DNA of 64,000 nucleotides from an uncultured Gammaproteobacteria bacterium (GTDB taxonomy: Bacteria > Patescibacteriota > Patescibacteriia > GWA2-47-26). Positions 3,859-64,000 of this stretch are shown piece by piece; the first letter of the stretch is position 1; each line of letters opens with the position of its first letter. Location: NCBI GenBank assembly GCA_964532925.1, contig CAZHIP010000001.1:126621-190620 (forward strand), given 5' to 3'. The notes beneath the pieces were generated by a model. The model was not told the origin of the DNA, did not search any database, and worked only from the letters and a program-made list of their open reading frames with translations. A program made the translations under genes and the position numbers.

Positions 3859-4767
3859 TTATCGGGATCGGTCGCGGCGGTCATTCTTCTTGCGGGATTC
3901 TTCGAGCTTGCTGTCTTCTTTTTCTTCATCGTCATCGGGAACAGAGACATTAAGGTCTTTTTCTGCTTTACGGATGACCTCATGTTCACGTTTTTCGCGA
4001 CGAGCGCGTTGTTTTGAGCTAAAGGATGAGTCTTTGGGTGCGGTATTGCTCATCTTGTCTGTCACGACCGGTTCTTTTTGTGTACGAGTAGCATCTTGGT
4101 CGTCATCACGCTTGTCCACGCGTTCTTCGAGGTTTTGTCGGCGAGCATTCATGAAGCGTTCACTCTGCTCAATTGTTTCTATTATTCCTGCGGTTTCCTT
4201 TTGTGATTTTTTCATTTCTCGCAAGATTTTTTTGTGCGCATTGAGCGGTGCTTCGATGTTTGAACTTGCTTCCGCTGCGGCTTGAATGTTACCAGAGCGC
4301 TCCATGGTATCGATAGATTTTTGAATACGCTCTGTGTGCGCATTGATATCGAGATTCAGTGCAGAGAGTGTCTGTGGGTCAAATTTCTGTTGAGCGATTT
4401 TTTCTGCTTCAACGAGGCGGCGCTCAAGACGGCGTGTTTCCCAGGCGGCTTTTGCAACTGGTGTTCGTGCAATGGCGGAGCGGACTTCCTCGGTAACGTG
4501 TACCTTCACAGGGTACAGTACGTCTCCTGGCATGGTTCTTTCAGCAGCCGCAGCAACCCCACTACTTACGAGCGCTACGACGAGCGCAAGGCTAATACTC
4601 GTTGTGAATGAACGATGGAGGGTAAAGAAAGTCGACCATGCTGTTCTTGGTTTGATGTCGCCCACGCCAAGGAGCGTAGTAAAATGCGAACGCATCGCAG
4701 CGTGATCAGCGGGGGTGAGCACGATGCGATGTGCATCCTTGATCAGTTGTTTGAAAGACTTATTCAT
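3859..4767 (-). CDS. single-pass membrane protein downstream of the ECF sigma gene; putative anti-sigma factor (DUF5667-like)
   Basis: 302 aa. One TM helix (ISLALVVALVSSGVAAAA), a cytoplasmic N-terminus and a highly charged, coiled-coil-like C-terminus. Its start overlaps the sigma factor stop by 8 nt. Confidence 0.5.
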   Translation of the reverse strand: MNKSFKQLIKDAHRIVLTPADHAAMRSHFTTLLGVGDIKPRTAWSTFFTLHRSFTTSISLALVVALVSSGVAAAAERTMPGDVLYPVKVHVTEEVRSAIARTPVAKAAWETRRLERRLVEAEKIAQQKFDPQTLSALNLDINAHTERIQKSIDTMERSGNIQAAAEASSNIEAPLNAHKKILREMKKSQKETAGIIETIEQSERFMNARRQNLEERVDKRDDDQDATRTQKEPVVTDKMSNTAPKDSSFSSKQRARREKREHEVIRKAEKDLNVSVPDDDEEKEDSKLEESRKKNDRRDRSR

Positions 4768-5272
4768 ATGTTCCTAATTTGTCTCGGAGTCGTTTCAGTG
4801 CTCGATGTAAGCGTACAGAGACTATATTTTCTGATTCATCGGTAATGGTCGCAATTTCTTTTGGTCCAAGTCCGTTGATGTATCGGAGCACGATTACTGT
4901 TTTGTGTTTTTCGTCGAGCAGTGAATCGAGTTGTGCAATAATCTTCTTTCCGTCTATGGTTCCAAATATATTTCGTTCGTCATCAACACTTCCTACGTCA
5001 AAGCCAGTTTCTTCTTGCATGGCGTCGAGGGATTCCGCTGTCTTTTTCTTGTGCTCGTTGATAATGCAATTCGTTGCGGTTTTATACAGCAAGGCTCGAG
5101 GGTTATCAATGGTGTTCCCGGCGCTCGCGTATTGCCAAACGCGAGTAAACACCTCCTGGGTCAAGTCTTTGGCGCGTTCATAATCGTAGACGCGAAAGTA
5201 ACAATGGCGAAAAATCGCATCGCTCCACGAGTCATACCAGGAGATAAATTGTTCTTCTATTGGTTTGCCCAT
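4760..5272 (-). CDS. RNA polymerase sigma-70 family, ECF subfamily sigma factor
   Basis: 170 aa. Region-2-like DLTQEVFTRVWQ and region-4 helix-turn-helix ATITDESENIVSVRLHRALKRLRDKL. Confidence 0.85.
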   Translation of the reverse strand: MGKPIEEQFISWYDSWSDAIFRHCYFRVYDYERAKDLTQEVFTRVWQYASAGNTIDNPRALLYKTATNCIINEHKKKTAESLDAMQEETGFDVGSVDDERNIFGTIDGKKIIAQLDSLLDEKHKTVIVLRYINGLGPKEIATITDESENIVSVRLHRALKRLRDKLGTYE

Positions 5273-5459
5273 AGTATATGACAGCGTGGAGTCGTCTTTC
5301 TTACGGAATTGGCGACTTTTCGCTTAAAATAGCATTTTTAAACATACTCTATTTGTCTAGAATGAGCAATATGTAAGAAATAGTTGACTGGGTTGTCATA
5401 CATACCAGAAAAGGTCGAATTTCTTCTTTCCTTAATCATGTTCGTTAGAATATACATAT

Positions 5460-33247: not shown

Positions 33248-33550
33248 TTAGTCGCCGCCCTCAAGGAGCGTTTCTTTGGCGACTCGATGAGCTCGGCAAA
33301 GAGGTTCCCCGAGGTCCACTAGGGTGGCTACGAGGGTTTTGAGTTCCTGTTGCTCCTTGGGGGGCAAAGAGCGAATGCGTTCTCGGAACTCTGCCCAGAG
33401 TTCATCACGAACTGCGCGCTCGAACGGGAGCTGTTTTGCTCGTTCGGGCAGCTCATTCAAAACTTCTGTGAGTTTTGGGGTCTCGAGAGCGCGGAGACGT
33501 TTTGCGTCCGCGAGGAAAGACTGATCTTCTGGAATGTATTCTTCTGTCAT
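33248..33550 (-). CDS. hypothetical protein
   Basis: 100 aa, helical and charged, no recognisable motif. Confidence 0.4.
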   Translation of the reverse strand: MTEEYIPEDQSFLADAKRLRALETPKLTEVLNELPERAKQLPFERAVRDELWAEFRERIRSLPPKEQQELKTLVATLVDLGEPLCRAHRVAKETLLEGGD

Positions 33551-59255: not shown

Positions 59256-59290
59256 GAAAAGCCACACCGCTCTGTGTGTGGCTTTTTGTG
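59256..59290. terminator. bidirectional intrinsic terminator
   Basis: AAAAGCCACACcgctctGTGTGGCTTTTTG, between convergent genes. Confidence 0.6.
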
Positions 59291-59302: not shown

Positions 59303-59530
59303 TTAATCTGTTGCATCATCTGACTCATGAGCAATAGGTGCGAGTTCGGGAATGATTTGTCCACATAAAGGGCAATAGTTGCCGGCTACTATCGGGACTT
59401 CATCGGTCCCATAGCAGCTGCTGGGGTGGACAGGGGTGGTTACGCTGTGAGGGTTTCGCATGCCGCAATCCGGGCAATAATGAAACAACAGCATGTGTGT
59501 GTGGGTACAAAGGTGCACTTGACCTGCCAT
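59303..59530 (-). CDS. small zinc-ribbon protein
   Basis: 75 aa with two CPxCG knuckles (YCPDCG, YCPLCG). Confidence 0.5.
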   Translation of the reverse strand: MAGQVHLCTHTHMLLFHYCPDCGMRNPHSVTTPVHPSSCYGTDEVPIVAGNYCPLCGQIIPELAPIAHESDDATD

Positions 59531-60527: not shown

Positions 60528-60956
60528 ATGGCAGTTAAAAAAATCAAAACAGTCATCAAACTCCAAATTCCGGCTGGGAAAGCAAACCCAGCGCCACCGG
60601 TCGGTCCAGCTCTTGGTCAGCACGGTTTGAACATTGCCGAATTCTGTGCAAAGTTCAACGAAGCTACTCGTCCACTCGGTGATGATATTATTCCCGTAGA
60701 AATTACCGTATACGAAGATCGCACCTACACCTTCAAACTCAAAACTCCGCCAGCGGCAGAGCTTTTGAAAAAGGCTGCGGGTATTGCAAAAGGTTCCAGT
60801 AAACCGTTGCAAGAAAAAGTTGGCAAAGTTTCGAAGGCTCAGGTTCGAGCAATCGCCGAACGAAAAATGCCAGACTTGAATACACAGGATATCAATGCCG
60901 CCATGCGCATTATCGAAGGCACGGCTCGTCAGATGGGTCTTGAGGTTACGGCATAA
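60528..60956 (+). CDS. rplK: 50S ribosomal protein L11
   Basis: [22 protein letters not shown] signature. Confidence 0.9.
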
Positions 60957-60967
60957 CGCATACATAT

Positions 60968-61651
60968 ATGGCAGATACAAAAAAAGTAAAAGTAGAAATG
61001 CCTGCAGTAGACCCAAAAAAGGTCTATGAAATCGATGAAGCGTTGGATTTGGTTAAGAAGACCTCCAAAGCAAAGTTCGATGCATCTGTTGAGCTTCACA
61101 TAAAGCTTGGCATTGACCCAAAAAAGGGTGAACAGCAAGTTCGCGCTACGGTTTCTTTGCCACATGGTACCGGTAAGGACAAGCGCATTGCCGTATTTGT
61201 AGAGAGCGGTCGTGAAGAAGAAGCTAAGGCCGCAGGCGCGACACTCTATGGTAACGACGAACTCATCAAGCAAATCGCCACAACCGGCGCATGCGATTTC
61301 GATATTGCCGTTGCAACACCAGTCATGATGCCTCAGCTTGCGAAAATCGCGAAAATTCTTGGTCCTCGCGGCTTGATGCCGAACCCGAAGACAGAAACCG
61401 TCACAAACGACATTGCGAAAGCGGTGAAGGAACTGAAGGGTGGTAAAGTCACATTCAAAAACGACGACACCGCCAACATCCACCAAGTGATCGGGAGGGT
61501 CAGCTTCTCCGCCGATCAGCTCAAAGGTAACTTTGAAGCGATTTTGGTAGTACTCAAGAAGTCAAAACCATCCGGTTCTAAGGGGGTCTTTTTGAAGAGC
61601 GCATCGCTGGCCTCGACCATGGGTCCGGGTATCCGCGTGAAGCTTTCCTAA
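60968..61651 (+). CDS. rplA: 50S ribosomal protein L1
   Basis: Conserved L1 blocks (KFDASVELHIKLGIDP, GPRGLMPNPK). Confidence 0.9.
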   Translation: MADTKKVKVEMPAVDPKKVYEIDEALDLVKKTSKAKFDASVELHIKLGIDPKKGEQQVRATVSLPHGTGKDKRIAVFVESGREEEAKAAGATLYGNDELIKQIATTGACDFDIAVATPVMMPQLAKIAKILGPRGLMPNPKTETVTNDIAKAVKELKGGKVTFKNDDTANIHQVIGRVSFSADQLKGNFEAILVVLKKSKPSGSKGVFLKSASLASTMGPGIRVKLS

Positions 61652-61665
61652 GATTTTTTTGAACG

Positions 61666-61696
61666 CAAAACCCTCCGAGCAATCGGAGGGTTTTTG
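61666..61696. terminator. intrinsic terminator hairpin after rplA
   Basis: AACCCTCCGAgcaaTCGGAGGGTTTTTGTT. Confidence 0.65.
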
Positions 61697-61762
61697 TTAT
61701 TGGTGCTTTTGCATAATATTTGATATAAGAAGAGCGAGGAATTTCACCTCAAGGAGGCAACC

Positions 61763-62260
61763 ATGAAGCCACTGGCGTATGTTTCTGGGGCTCTGACTGA
61801 CATGCCCGAGGAGGATCGGGCGAAGTACAAGAGCTTCTATGAAGAAGTTGGTGCCGTATGTGCGGAGCATGGCTACGAGCCGTATTGTCCGCACGTCTAC
61901 AGTGATCCCAAGACGGCCGCGCACTTGTCGCCACAGGAGGTTGATCAGATCGATCGCCAGGCAGTGATGCAGTCGCGTATCGTCGTCGCCTACGTCGGCA
62001 CACCCTCGCTCGGTGTTGGGATCGAACTCGAGATGTGTCATCACGGCAATAAGCCGCTGGTGTTGCTTTTCGAGAAAGATCGCCTCGACGCACGTCGCAT
62101 CTCTCGGCTTGCTCGGGGTAACCCTGCGGTTGTGCACGAGATCGCATTCATCGATTTCGCGGATGCCAAGTATCAGCTTGGTGAGTTTCTCGCCGGGTTT
62201 GCTAAACACCCTAGCTTGGAGTCTCTTCCGAAGCTACTGCGTACGCCGCTTCCGTTCTAG
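61763..62260 (+). CDS. nucleoside 2-deoxyribosyltransferase-like fold protein (DUF4406 / NDT-like)
   Basis: 165 aa. YVSGALTD and GVGIELEM resemble the YxAGP...GTxxExG architecture of the NDT superfamily. Only gene in the window with a perfect AAGGAGG SD 6 nt upstream. Its GC content is noticeably higher than its neighbours. The overlapping minus-strand ORFs are judged shadow frames. Confidence 0.55.
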   Translation: MKPLAYVSGALTDMPEEDRAKYKSFYEEVGAVCAEHGYEPYCPHVYSDPKTAAHLSPQEVDQIDRQAVMQSRIVVAYVGTPSLGVGIELEMCHHGNKPLVLLFEKDRLDARRISRLARGNPAVVHEIAFIDFADAKYQLGEFLAGFAKHPSLESLPKLLRTPLPF

Positions 62261-62283
62261 TGTTCCTGCTCATTCCCGTTTAC

Positions 62284-62325
62284 CCGCTCGATTTTTCCTC
62301 TGGAAAGGTCGGGCGGCTTTTTTTA
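62284..62325. terminator. intrinsic terminator (8-bp stem, T8 tract) after the NDT-like gene
   Basis: CCGCTCGA-17 nt loop-TCGGGCGGCTTTTTTTTA. Confidence 0.45.
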
Positions 62326-62395
62326 TCCACTTGGATGAGTAGAGGGTAGGTGATAGGCTATCTAAAACGTATACTCACTCCACTTATTTTTCTTT

Positions 62396-62932
62396 ATGGC
62401 AGATACTTACGAGCGGCCGGCGTGGGATGATTACTTTATGGCAATCGTGCGGATTGTTGCCACGCGCGGTACCTGTGATCGCCTGCGAGCGGGCGCAGTG
62501 CTCGTGAAAAAGAATCGTATTATTTCAACAGGGTTTAATGGTTCGCCTCCGGGGTTGCCTCACTGCGACGGCGAAGAAGGGCATTTATTAGAAGAAGGGC
62601 ATTGCGTGCGCACGATCCACGGGGAACACAACGCCATTTTGCAGGCAGCAGCTGTTGGTGGTATTAGTACCGATGGCGCAACGATGTACTCAAAGTTCAA
62701 CCCATGTATTCATTGTGCAAAATATGTTATTGCTGCCGGCATCAAGCGTGTTGTGGTAGGAAAGATGTATCGCGGAGAGCAGGCGCTTGAGTATTTGAAG
62801 TCAGCAGGGGTACAGGTGGATATGTATAAAGAAAACCCGCAATGGAATACAATGGTCCAAGGGTTGTTTATGAATGAAATTGAAGAGGTGCAAGCGCGAG
62901 AAGGTGATGTTCGTTTTGGTTCATCTCAATAA
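62396..62932 (+). CDS. dCMP deaminase (cytidine/deoxycytidylate deaminase family, ComEB-like)
   Basis: Zinc motifs HGEHNAI and PCIHCAKYV. Confidence 0.8.
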   Translation: MADTYERPAWDDYFMAIVRIVATRGTCDRLRAGAVLVKKNRIISTGFNGSPPGLPHCDGEEGHLLEEGHCVRTIHGEHNAILQAAAVGGISTDGATMYSKFNPCIHCAKYVIAAGIKRVVVGKMYRGEQALEYLKSAGVQVDMYKENPQWNTMVQGLFMNEIEEVQAREGDVRFGSSQ

Positions 62933-62936
62933 TACT

Positions 62937-63491
62937 ATGCATACCGTTATTTTTGGATTTGTGGGGCCCATGGTAAGCGGCAAAGGAACTGCTGCTCTAT
63001 ATTTAAAAGAGAAGCATGGTGCGGTTGTGTTTCGTTTCTCTACCATCTTACGCGATCTTTTGGATCGTATTTCTGTAGTGCAAAGCCGGGATAATTTAAT
63101 GACGATGTCGGAAGTCGTGCGTAGCAATTTTGGTGAAGATATTTTGGCAAAAGCTATTGCGCGCGATGCCGCCCATGCTAGTGCGCCACTGGTGGTTATT
63201 GATGGCATACGGCGTCCAACAGACATTGGTCACTTAATGCAGTTGCCTGAGTTTGTGTTGATAGAAATTACTGCCGATATGCAGATACGCCATGAGCGTC
63301 TCCTGTTGCGCAAAGAAAACAGCGACGATGCTACAAAAACATTTGAACAATTTGCCGCAGATCATGATCGCGATGCTGAACGTTTGGTTCCAGAAGTCGC
63401 CAAACAGGCACGGGAGCGTATTGATAACAACGGCACACTGGAGGAGTTGTATCGTCAACTAGATACGCTTGTCACAAAGTATGGAGGTTGA
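62937..63491 (+). CDS. P-loop NTPase, putative nucleotide (dNMP/CMP-family) kinase
   Basis: Walker A FVGPMVSGKGT near the N-terminus (GKGT is typical of cytidylate-kinase-like enzymes). The ORF opens at 62874; the plausible Met is at 62937. Genomic context is dNMP metabolism. Confidence 0.5.
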   Translation: MHTVIFGFVGPMVSGKGTAALYLKEKHGAVVFRFSTILRDLLDRISVVQSRDNLMTMSEVVRSNFGEDILAKAIARDAAHASAPLVVIDGIRRPTDIGHLMQLPEFVLIEITADMQIRHERLLLRKENSDDATKTFEQFAADHDRDAERLVPEVAKQARERIDNNGTLEELYRQLDTLVTKYGG

Positions 63492-63912
63492 GATCAAGCG
63501 ATTACGCGAGGACATTGTGTTGCCAGAGTTTAAGACCGCTGGCTCAGTTGGGTTTGATATAGCAGCCGCGGAAACCACAAAGGTTCCGTCCTTGGGAGGC
63601 GCTCGTATTCCTACAGGATTGATTGTTGCAGTGCCAGCGGGCTATATGCTTATGATTGCGGCGCGGTCATCAACGGCGCAAAAACACGGATTACTTCTCG
63701 GAAACGGTATTGGTGTGATTGACCAGGATTATCGTGGTCCCGAGGATGAGATTAAGATTTCCGTGTATAATTTTACTGATCGTGAGGTGATAGTTGAAAA
63801 AGGAGTTGCGGTAGCGCAGGGGATTTTTGTCCGTGTTGATCGGGCAGAGTGGAGTGAGGTTTCTGAAATGAATGCACCAACTCGCGGGGGTTTTGGCTCT
63901 ACGGATAAATAA
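63469..63912 (+). CDS. dut: dUTP diphosphatase (trimeric dUTPase)
   Basis: Motifs AARSS, GVIDQDYRG and RGGFGSTD. An alternative start is at 63481. Confidence 0.85.
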   Translation: MSQSMEVEIKRLREDIVLPEFKTAGSVGFDIAAAETTKVPSLGGARIPTGLIVAVPAGYMLMIAARSSTAQKHGLLLGNGIGVIDQDYRGPEDEIKISVYNFTDREVIVEKGVAVAQGIFVRVDRAEWSEVSEMNAPTRGGFGSTDK

Positions 63913-63918
63913 ACACAC

Positions 63919-64000
63919 ATGAAAGCCTATCATAATATTGTTCAACACATTCTAGAAAATGGCGTGCAGAAAAATAATCGCACCGGCGTTGATGCGCTGA
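63919..64000 (+). CDS. thyA: thymidylate synthase ThyA-like, N-terminal fragment (runs off window)
   Basis: MKAYHNIVQHILENGVQKNNRTGVDAL matches the ThyA N-terminus (M.QYL.L...L..G..K.DRTGTGT). Only 27 aa are visible. Confidence 0.55.
   Translation, partial: MKAYHNIVQHILENGVQKNNRTGVDAL

Follow-up and report, generated by a model that had tools for sequence, protein, structure and literature searches.

The window analysed here is a 64,000-nt stretch of contig CAZHIP010000001.1 (assembly GCA_964532925.1, positions 126,621–190,620 of the forward strand), which derives from a bacterium of the candidate phyla radiation (CPR). Close to its right end, a foreign cassette of ∼620 bp interrupts a conserved operon for the synthesis of deoxythymidine monophosphate (dTMP). 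The cassette carries a single open reading frame (ORF) of 165 codons, whose product is probably an N-glycosidase of pyrimidine deoxynucleoside monophosphates (dNMPs) that would serve to sanitize the nucleotide pool beside the deoxycytidine monophosphate (dCMP) deaminase encoded directly downstream.

The insertion is evident from a comparison with the closest relative found, locus L177, whose ribosomal proteins L11 and L1 and ThyA are 91.5%, 85% and 91.4% identical, respectively, to those of the window, and whose GC content is 47.6%. The gene order of L177 from secE to secD is that of the window (with an rplK-rplA-dcd-kinase-dut-thyA-folA-gatB array), but the spacer between rplA and dcd, the gene of the dCMP deaminase, is just 94 nt long and holds no ORF. 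Homology between the window and L177 in blastn ends at 61652 (78.6% identity up to there) and restarts at 62414. In a three-way alignment of the junctions, the terminator of the L177 spacer together with TTTTTGTT(T)AT corresponds to window positions 61667–61699, and the spacer after the T-tract, ATCCACTT...AGGTG.TAG, matches the window starting at ∼62322. Both boundaries of the cassette thus coincide with the T-tracts of terminators. We also scanned one genome per GTDB species with dcd as the query, which yielded 80 loci (L004–L083), nearly all from Patescibacteria, with some of the records mislabelled. A close homologue of the inserted ORF (E≤1e-5) is present at 0 of the 80 loci; the distant domain related to nucleoside 2-deoxyribosyltransferases (NDTs) at one of them, L009, was detected only in a relaxed tblastn search and not at this threshold. 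Because the spacer is empty in L177 and none of the 80 loci holds a close homologue, the ORF represents a horizontal acquisition, through a recent insertion of ∼620 bp into the 94-nt rplA-dcd spacer. Its nearest homologues are 55–63% identical and lie on contigs of 52–59% GC, which fits a donor with a GC-richer genome. A foreign insertion of a single gene is in itself ordinary. Another small presence/absence difference between the two genomes was seen further downstream, where a gene for an APH protein (aminoglycoside/choline-kinase-like) lies between gatB and miaA in a contig identical to the window (L001, 7448–8443) and is absent in L177.

A phage origin of the cassette was considered and rejected. 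A tblastn search against 50,697 GenBank phage records gave 0 matches, PHROGs gave a weak match to the NDT family only, and IMG/VR gave one distant locus. This locus (L097, 4436–6343; UViG_3300033146_004228) is the sole relative on a viral contig. Its protein is 34% identical and has a C-terminal extension of ∼110 residues, and upstream of the gene are a cytidine-deaminase-like ORF and another ORF of 263 aa.

The composition of the inserted ORF agrees with its foreign origin, which a sequence-only reading of the window had already suspected from the high GC content, a canonical Shine-Dalgarno (SD) site, flanking terminators and shadow ORFs on the opposite strand. The ORF has a GC content of 56.6%, compared to a mean of 47.5% (standard deviation 2.3) over 58 ORFs of the window, and a GC content at third codon positions of 64.5%, compared to 46.6% (standard deviation 6.3). 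It lies at the 99.9th percentile of 498-nt segments, and the 64 kb as a whole peak in GC at 61750. Among 49 genes, none has a codon usage less like that of the host (z = −2.0). The terminators are found on both sides (Table 1), and the minus strand carries the two shadow ORFs (170 and 132 aa). The duplex of the SD site with the anti-SD sequence (−11.4 kcal/mol) is the strongest of 54 genes. The gene is not, as had been supposed, the only one with such a site, since the minus-strand ORF at 59303–59530 has AGGAGG (−10.8 kcal/mol). The median anti-SD energy in the window is −1.8 kcal/mol, compared to −2.1 kcal/mol for random sites; an energy of −6 kcal/mol is reached by 11% of the window genes and 6% of random sites, and −10 kcal/mol by 0.55% of random sites. 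The organism apparently starts translation largely without SD sites. A scan of 61695–61762 with the sigma-70 consensus revealed no promoter for the inserted gene.

Two other ORFs of the window share some of these features. The ORF with the second-strongest SD site, at 59303–59530, encodes 75 residues and lies between a 107-aa ORF and secE; its product contains two CxxC pairs, resembles a double zinc ribbon and matches Pfam DZR weakly. Its GC content is slightly raised (50.9%), and a terminator follows at 59286–59257. The ORF at 33248–33550 on the minus strand (100 aa) has a GC content of 54.8%, an SD-like AAGGAGA site (−8.5 kcal/mol) and no Pfam match. In a genome this poor in SD sites, it is a candidate for a second gene of foreign origin.

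Table 1. Features at the right end of the window, in window coordinates.
Feature	Position	Strand	Evidence or remark
secE-nusG-rplK-rplA block, with gyrB and a small ORF upstream	last 5 kb of the window	+	
rplK (L11)	60528–60956	+	
rplA (L1), end of the secE-nusG-rplK-rplA block	60968–61651	+	left flank of the insert; PF00687 on the identical contig L001
Intrinsic-terminator-like hairpin after rplA	61667–61694	+	12-bp stem, then T run; aligns with the terminator of the L177 spacer
Inserted cassette, ∼620 bp (leader, SD site, ORF, own terminator)	61700–62321, ± ∼5 bp	+	three-way alignment with L177; GC profile
Shine-Dalgarno site AAGGAGG	61751–61757	+	5 nt before ATG
Inserted ORF, 165 aa, DNPH1/Rcl-like	61763–62260	+	profile; AlphaFold2/Foldseek; invariant residues
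Intrinsic-terminator-like hairpin of the inserted gene	62284–62316	+	15-bp stem, then CTTTTTTT
dcd, dCMP deaminase of ComEB/DCTD type	62396–62932	+	PF00383, 1.3e-24; TIGR02571, 5e-40
UPF0200/AdkA-like P-loop protein of nucleoside monophosphate kinase fold	62937–63491	+	PF13207; PRK08356, 3e-17; phrog_139
dut, dUTPase of trimeric type	63481–63912	+	TIGR00576, 115.4 bits (cut-off 102.55); PF00692, 2.9e-24
thyA, first 27 codons	63919–64000	+	remainder read from L001

The inserted protein clearly belongs to the NDT superfamily, and its sequence places it outside the NDT subfamily. The sequence-only reading had labelled it NDT-fold and DUF4406-like. The superfamily assignment stands, whereas membership of DUF4406 or of the NDTs proper does not: no match to PF14359 (DUF4406) was obtained at E≤0.1, and among 48 long relatives, weak matches to this model are limited to 3. 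A family profile was built from 35 homologues and searched against the PDB. It matched BlsM (E = 2e-8), the cytidine monophosphate (CMP) N-glycosidase BcmB (5e-8), rat Rcl (8.5e-8), human DNPH1 (∼7e-7) and MilB (2e-4), and gave E ∼1 with most true NDTs. The AlphaFold2 model is of high confidence (predicted local distance difference test 90.7; predicted template modelling score 0.85). The top 19 Foldseek matches of this model in the PDB are human DNPH1 (E = 1e-7, template modelling score by target 0.77–0.85), followed by BcmB. Judged by profile and predicted structure, the protein is closer to the nucleotide N-glycosidases, DNPH1/Rcl and MilB/BcmB/BlsM, than to NDT or DUF4406.

Six residues, Y6, H44, D64, S82, E88 and S114, are invariant in the 35 homologues, and hhalign pairs them with Y24, H56, D80, S98, E104 and S128 of human DNPH1. 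The hidden Markov model (HMM) alignment to rat Rcl places the Y6/D64/E88 triad and the two serines likewise. For hhalign we used what we take to be the human DNPH1 sequence, and the residue numbers given in PMC10603095 are consistent with it. In DNPH1, Y24, D80 and E104 constitute the catalytic triad, with E104 forming a covalent ester with deoxyribose 5-phosphate (dR5P); S98 and S128' of the partner subunit hold the phosphate, and H56 touches O2 of the base and stabilizes the leaving group (PMC10603095). A tyrosine in place of Phe17 of MilB accompanies specificity for deoxyribose, and MilB reads cytosine by Glu62 at the position where DNPH1 has His56 (PMC10603095). The inserted protein thus appears to bear the signature of a 2'-deoxynucleotide N-glycosidase, with a histidine that is DNPH1-like rather than MilB-like. 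Motifs that are invariant and specific to the family are YxPH..DP, P57 and ISRLxRG. An exhaustive profile search recovered 2235 cluster representatives (clusters at 50% identity) with E≤1e-3, of which 799 have E≤1e-10 and 119 have E≤1e-30.

The comparison with characterized relatives shows both common and distinct features. With DNPH1/Rcl of human and rat, the inserted protein shares the predicted fold, the Tyr/Asp/Glu triad, both phosphate-binding serines and the PSLGVGxE motif; a histidine also lies in a short helix after strand 2 and is aligned to H56 by hhalign. However, it is only ∼22% identical to them and, judged from its sequence, is not an orthologue of DNPH1. Its family is prokaryotic, and the members are standalone or fused to a deaminase, a helix-turn-helix (HTH) domain or a sigma-r4 domain. 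The CMP and hydroxymethyl-CMP N-glycosidases of nucleoside-antibiotic and bacimethrin pathways (MilB, BcmB, BlsM) are the best profile matches in the PDB and have the same fold. MilB and BcmB act together with a ThyA-like enzyme. In the family of the inserted ORF, the ribose-contacting Phe17 of MilB is replaced by the invariant Tyr6, which would indicate deoxyribose, the cytosine-reading Glu62 by His44, and the phosphate-binding Arg23 by Thr or Ser (Thr12); no natural-product genes are present in the window. DmtZ of phages with 2-aminoadenine DNA is likewise an NDT-superfamily enzyme acting on dNMPs, with a Tyr6/Glu nucleophile. Its gene adjoins that of a dUTPase-fold enzyme or is joined to it as a fusion, and its activity reshapes the dNMP pool. 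In contrast to the inserted protein, it has Asn in place of the Asp of the triad and is specific for deoxyadenosine monophosphate (dAMP) and the Z base. DmtZ is phage-borne, whereas the family of the inserted protein resides on chromosomes, is all but missing from phage collections and is associated with pyrimidine enzymes. The inserted gene therefore belongs to a kind already known, the NDT-superfamily nucleotide N-glycosidases, but to an uncharacterized subfamily without a curated model.

The genomic neighbourhoods of the family point to pyrimidine nucleotides. Among 32 metagenome loci of at least 8 kb, 13 have a thyA-like, dcd or deoxycytidine triphosphate (dCTP)-deaminase gene within 5 kb of the family member. 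For the closest homologue (P0002, 59% identity), the gene has a Tmk fusion gene on one side and dcd-thyA-folA-dCTP deaminase on the other, and the entire block separates rplJ from rplA in a different CPR genome. Two others (P0044 and P0046) are located in an array of ribonucleotide reductase (RNR), pteridine reductase, a dUTPase-like protein, the family member, ThyA, a divergent ThyA-like protein and dCTP deaminase. Fusions to dCMP deaminase occur in both orders. A 330-aa protein at L118 has the NDT-like domain first; at L140 (∼4500–5417), L144 and L145 the deaminase comes first, and the gene is part of a Tmk-dut-thyA-folA cluster beside rplA. At L009 (14–961, Uhrbacteria), the more distant NDT-like domain precedes an orthologue of the window's deaminase with 71% identity to it; L009 and L140 show that CPR genomes contain fusions of either order. 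Of 48 long family representatives, six contain PF00383, one a dCTP-deaminase-like (DCD) domain, two an HTH and two a sigma-r4 domain; the HTH fusions account for the “XRE family” names found in databases. A full-text literature search of incomplete coverage found no description of prokaryotic DNPH1-like/dCMP-deaminase fusions. At one further locus (L103, 52–1784; contig GC 59%), a 62% identical homologue is directly followed by glyA, whose product, serine hydroxymethyltransferase, supplies methylene-tetrahydrofolate to ThyA.

Because the family is fused to dCMP deaminase in both orders and recurs in clusters of thyA, dut and dCTP deaminase genes, a pyrimidine dNMP is the likely substrate. The enzyme most likely cleaves a pyrimidine dNMP of the deaminase branch into base and dR5P, and the most likely candidates are deoxyuridine monophosphate (dUMP) or a 5-substituted dUMP produced by the deaminase from salvaged modified dCMP. 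By analogy to DNPH1, a homodimer would bind the 2'-deoxynucleoside 5'-monophosphate, with Tyr6 setting the specificity for the deoxy form, and Ser82 and Ser114 of the partner subunit holding the phosphate. Glu88 would attack C1' to give a covalent dR5P-enzyme ester, while Asp64 would protonate the leaving base and His44 would stabilize it; water would then free dR5P. In the sanitation pathway that we propose, dCMP deaminase acting on salvaged modified dCMP would generate a 5-substituted dUMP, which the inserted enzyme would destroy before it could be phosphorylated by the kinase and incorporated. In humans, modified nucleotides that enter by the DCK/DCTD/DTYMK route are countered by DNPH1, which acts on the 5-hydroxymethyl-dUMP made by DCTD (PMC13184875). 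The proposed role may parallel this human pair: DCTD is the metabolic partner of DNPH1, and dCMP deaminase is a partner of the inserted ORF's family by gene adjacency or fusion.

Several observations weigh against this interpretation. The match of the inserted protein to PF05014 (20.1 bits, E = 7e-4) is below the gathering threshold of 28.8 bits, which some of its relatives do pass, and the protein has no match in NCBIfam. The pairing of H44 with H56 comes from hhalign, and a plain HMM alignment shifts it by three residues. Two residues of DNPH1 are replaced: Arg30, which recognizes O4 of the base, by Thr12 (Thr or Ser in the family), and Glu55, which activates water, by Pro43. Since these are not conserved, specificity is not transferable from DNPH1. 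About half of the homologues examined are found in unrelated settings (dprA/folC, an integrase, hypothetical genes), and a low-GC gut clade has no thyA/dcd link, such that this link is frequent, not universal. Where this organism would obtain modified dCMP is a matter of speculation. As for the insertion itself, no integrase or transposase gene was found in the 58–64 kb region of the window, and the junctions show no clear target-site duplication, only T-tract microhomology at both.

The neighbouring genes bear on whether a modified pyrimidine could be made here. The sequence-only reading had recognized a dCMP deaminase, a P-loop kinase, a dUTPase and a partial thyA downstream of the inserted gene, all of which are present as described, and had interpreted them as a compact unit for dTMP synthesis. 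This interpretation is borne out by the complete locus. Exact-protein look-up located the inserted ORF on three metagenome contigs, one of which (L001) is 100% identical to the window across all 4632 common nt and extends past the end of the window, where dut is followed by thyA (290 aa), folA and gatB. On L001, L002 and L177 alike, folA (PF00186) begins 3 nt past thyA. The deaminase has the zinc motifs HGEHNA and PCIHCA. Taken together, dcd-kinase-dut-thyA-folA is, by its predicted gene functions, an ordinary unit leading from dUMP to dTMP with folate recycling, placed behind rplK-rplA of a CPR chromosome. Like the canonical bacterial unit (dcd/comEB, dut, thyA, folA), it encodes ThyA, dUTPase and dihydrofolate reductase (DHFR) that match curated models, ThyA and dUTPase scoring past their cut-offs. 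It differs from the canonical unit in its location directly after rplKA and in containing an uncharacterized UPF0200-like kinase where a recognizable Tmk would be expected. A search of Rfam at the gathering threshold identified three tRNAs only, all distant, and no structured RNA or riboswitch in the leaders. A TATACT sequence near 62370, spotted by eye, could be a promoter for dcd.

The full ThyA sequence (L001, 4551–5423) scores 299.2 bits with the TIGR03284 equivalog model (cut-off 108.35). All eight of its NCBIfam matches are thymidylate synthase (TS) models, and its best 60 PDB matches are all TS or DHFR-TS (top E ∼1e-75). The catalytic cysteine (in PPCH), the arginines for the dUMP phosphate, the His and Tyr of HxY and the hydrophobic C-terminus are intact. 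The conserved motifs and residues comprise NRTG (20–23, with R21), E58, ELEFF, IWDEW, GPIYGFQWR, DRRMIVSAWNP (150–160), LPPCH (168–172), QRSVD (190–194), PFNIASY (200–206), DVHIYVNH (230–237) and EIAV (287–290, with the C-terminal IAV). PFNIASY retains the Asn, not the Asp of dCMP hydroxymethylase. By these motifs and scores, ThyA is a canonical TS. The NNRTGVDAL stretch, which had been regarded as off-consensus relative to DRTGTGT, is a naturally variable region of genuine enzymes, and Cryptosporidium TS reads NRTGISTY at this position. Hydroxymethylases, unlike TS, do not make dihydrofolate, and DHFR is needed only when dihydrofolate is made. The adjacent DHFR gene therefore fits a ThyA that produces dihydrofolate.

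These data largely refute the suggestion that the cluster makes a hypermodified pyrimidine, 5-hydroxymethyl-dU or -dC, for the genome, a non-canonical pathway that the sequence-only reading wished to see excluded and that we now regard as scarcely tenable. The enzyme classes do overlap with the hypermodification sets of phages, MilA/MilB and BcmA/BcmB are pairs of a ThyA-like protein and an N-glycosidase in natural-product pathways, and divergent ThyA paralogues occur at other loci with members of the inserted ORF's family (L087, L118). However, the ThyA of the window lacks the Asp of dCMP hydroxymethylase, keeps its fit to the TS model and adjoins DHFR, and it is the only copy in the cluster. 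A single residue does not decide against a dUMP hydroxymethylase; the high identity to the ThyA of L177, which has the same array without the NDT-like gene, argues against one. The array is, moreover, retained as housekeeping synteny across dozens of CPR genomes, and the phage collections hold next to no relatives of the inserted protein. As far as the window is concerned, the analysis thus mainly tidies up: its thymidylate cluster is an ordinary one that can be explained without a modified-base pathway. A genuine NDT (NDT/PDT) for base salvage on deoxynucleosides is likewise disfavoured, and very improbable in our estimate. The weak PF05014 match and a match to phrog_355, “nucleoside 2-deoxyribosyltransferase” (3e-5), point in this direction, and the triad is common to the whole superfamily. 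Yet the family profile separates the nucleotide N-glycosidases (∼1e-8) from the solved NDTs, the family never varies at the two serines whose DNPH1 counterparts bind the 5'-phosphate, DNPH1 and BcmB head the structural matches, and the enzymes encoded nearby or fused to family members use nucleotides rather than nucleosides as substrates.

Two other possibilities are not separable from sanitation by sequence. The protein could be a catabolic or overflow enzyme that degrades surplus dUMP, dCMP or dTMP to base and dR5P, either for carbon and energy or to limit deoxyuridine triphosphate when folate or ThyA is short. CPR bacteria rely on scavenged nucleotides, and the deaminase fusion equally suits a route from dCMP through dUMP to uracil and dR5P. 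DNPH1 is described as slowly hydrolysing canonical dNMPs, including dUMP (PMC10483697). We nevertheless consider this unlikely: no deoC or other gene for dR5P utilization was seen beside any family member examined, and the location among dTMP-producing genes favours pool control over catabolism for energy. Alternatively, a free base rather than water could resolve the dR5P-Glu88 intermediate, such that a phosphodeoxyribosyltransferase would interconvert dNMPs and feed the thymidylate branch, for example by converting dCMP or dAMP plus uracil or thymine into dUMP or dTMP in an organism living on salvaged nucleotides. This is the more radical version, in which dNMP pools would be rebalanced without RNR. 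The chemistry exists in this fold, as the DNPH1-like phage enzyme DmtZ hydrolyses dAMP and transfers dR5P to 2-aminoadenine (PMC12884076); Pro43 replaces the water-activating Glu55 of DNPH1, and the recurrent thyA/dcd neighbourhood suits a synthetic role equally. The invariant Pro57 may also be relevant, as a putative counterpart of the “water-excluding” proline of transferases. However, transfer by DmtZ amounts to 20% only and is specific for a non-canonical base. Sequence does not tell a hydrolase from a transferase, and we rate the transferase as quite unlikely.

Sanitation of the pyrimidine dNMP pool thus remains the preferred reading for the inserted protein. A broader version would extend it to the whole family of ∼800 clusters, widespread and so far unrecognized, as a “deaminate then deglycosylate” module that destroys 5-modified pyrimidine dNMPs which scavengers such as CPR bacteria acquire from foreign, modified DNA. 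We put this forward tentatively and lean against it. If correct, it would be a bacterial counterpart of the DCTD-DNPH1 axis, which would be either of independent origin or anciently shared. The practical outcome is a sizeable DNPH1-like family that lacks a curated model and is misnamed “XRE family transcriptional regulator” or “hypothetical”. Three independent fusions to dCMP deaminase back the specific, testable prediction now available for it. Should this prediction prove true, pool sanitation at the dNMP level, studied in human cells because of therapy with inhibitors of poly(ADP-ribose) polymerase (PARP), would also be bacterial, CPR bacteria that scavenge nucleotides would be able to cope with modified DNA precursors, and bacterial homologues would become available for mechanistic and inhibitor work. 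The prokaryotic parallel to DCTD-DNPH1 is a worthwhile hypothesis that would overturn nothing.

The host unit of the insertion is conserved in Patescibacteria. Nearly all of the 80 loci derive from Kerfeld-, Uhr-, Doudna-, Buchanan-, Komeili- and Falkowbacteria and from Parcubacteria. The rplA gene is located upstream of dcd, with dcd orthologues of 56–75% identity, at 53 loci, the kinase follows within 300 nt at 46, and dut, thyA and folA are found near dcd at 37, 26 and 13 loci, respectively. By this synteny, the dcd-kinase-dut-thyA-folA unit behind rplKA is vertically inherited in the clade. The rplA-dcd junction itself carries different cargo in different lineages, including CheY-like response regulators, NYN-domain, PHP-domain and hypothetical proteins (L021, L024, L037, L045, L050, L056 and others), and appears to be a tolerated site of insertion.

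The kinase of the unit is a P-loop protein with a GKGT-type Walker A motif (GPMVSGKGT), as had been noted, but a relationship to Cmk or Tmk does not hold. The Pfam search gave no match to PF02223 (thymidylate kinase) or PF02224 (cytidylate kinase), and by family models the protein belongs to none of Tmk, Cmk and T4 gp1; its best matches are PF13207 and phrog_139, “dNMP kinase” (1e-16). With PRK08356 it scores 63 bits (cut-off 189). The start at 62937 agrees with the N-terminus of the family, whose profile matches an uncharacterized archaeal UPF0200/AdkA-like protein, SSO1041 (PDB 3lw7/3h0k), with E = 2e-19. SSO1041 also gives the best Foldseek superposition (template modelling score ∼0.8) on the AlphaFold2 model (predicted local distance difference test 93.3), ahead of adenylate and UMP/CMP kinases. 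From its position, we infer that the protein is a pyrimidine (d)NMP kinase, and it is a candidate for a non-orthologous pyrimidine dNMP kinase. The analysis thus flags a conserved, uncharacterized UPF0200-like protein as a likely pyrimidine dNMP kinase in many CPR genomes. Annotation pipelines name it “AAA family ATPase” or “dephospho-CoA kinase”, and it is duplicated at L070, L075 and L079.

A defence function of the kinase-deaminase pair was also considered. The anti-phage dCTP deaminase is a fusion of an N-terminal kinase and a C-terminal deaminase (NF041025; dCTPase in PADLOC), a model against which the window proteins score 63 and 22 bits (cut-off 400). In the window, the two proteins are encoded by separate genes in the reversed order. 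With PADLOC, the deaminase and the kinase matched the model of the fused dCTPase only in part, and the NDT-like protein and the dUTPase gave no match. The candidate was rejected, as the pair is conserved housekeeping synteny.

Two types of loci elsewhere in the family have a less ordinary gene content. In a non-CPR genome (L087, 5465–8939; also L090, L110 and L113), genes for RNR, pteridine reductase, a dUTPase-like protein, the NDT-like protein, ThyA, a ThyA-like protein and dCTP deaminase are clustered. The 276-aa ThyA of L087 is barely past the TIGR03284 cut-off, with PCP replacing PPCH, and the second, ThyA-like protein (342 aa) is very divergent; this cluster may represent a non-canonical pyrimidine pathway. 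At L118 (622–5981), two ThyA-like fusions, one of 568 aa and one of 497 aa with a C-terminal PterinBD-DUF4346 domain, stand in a row with a 283-aa dCTP-deaminase-like protein and the NDT-like::dCMP deaminase fusion, and arrangements akin to this are found at L121, L125, L128, L165 and L174. Loci of the L118 type, not the window, are the place to seek a modified-pyrimidine pathway.

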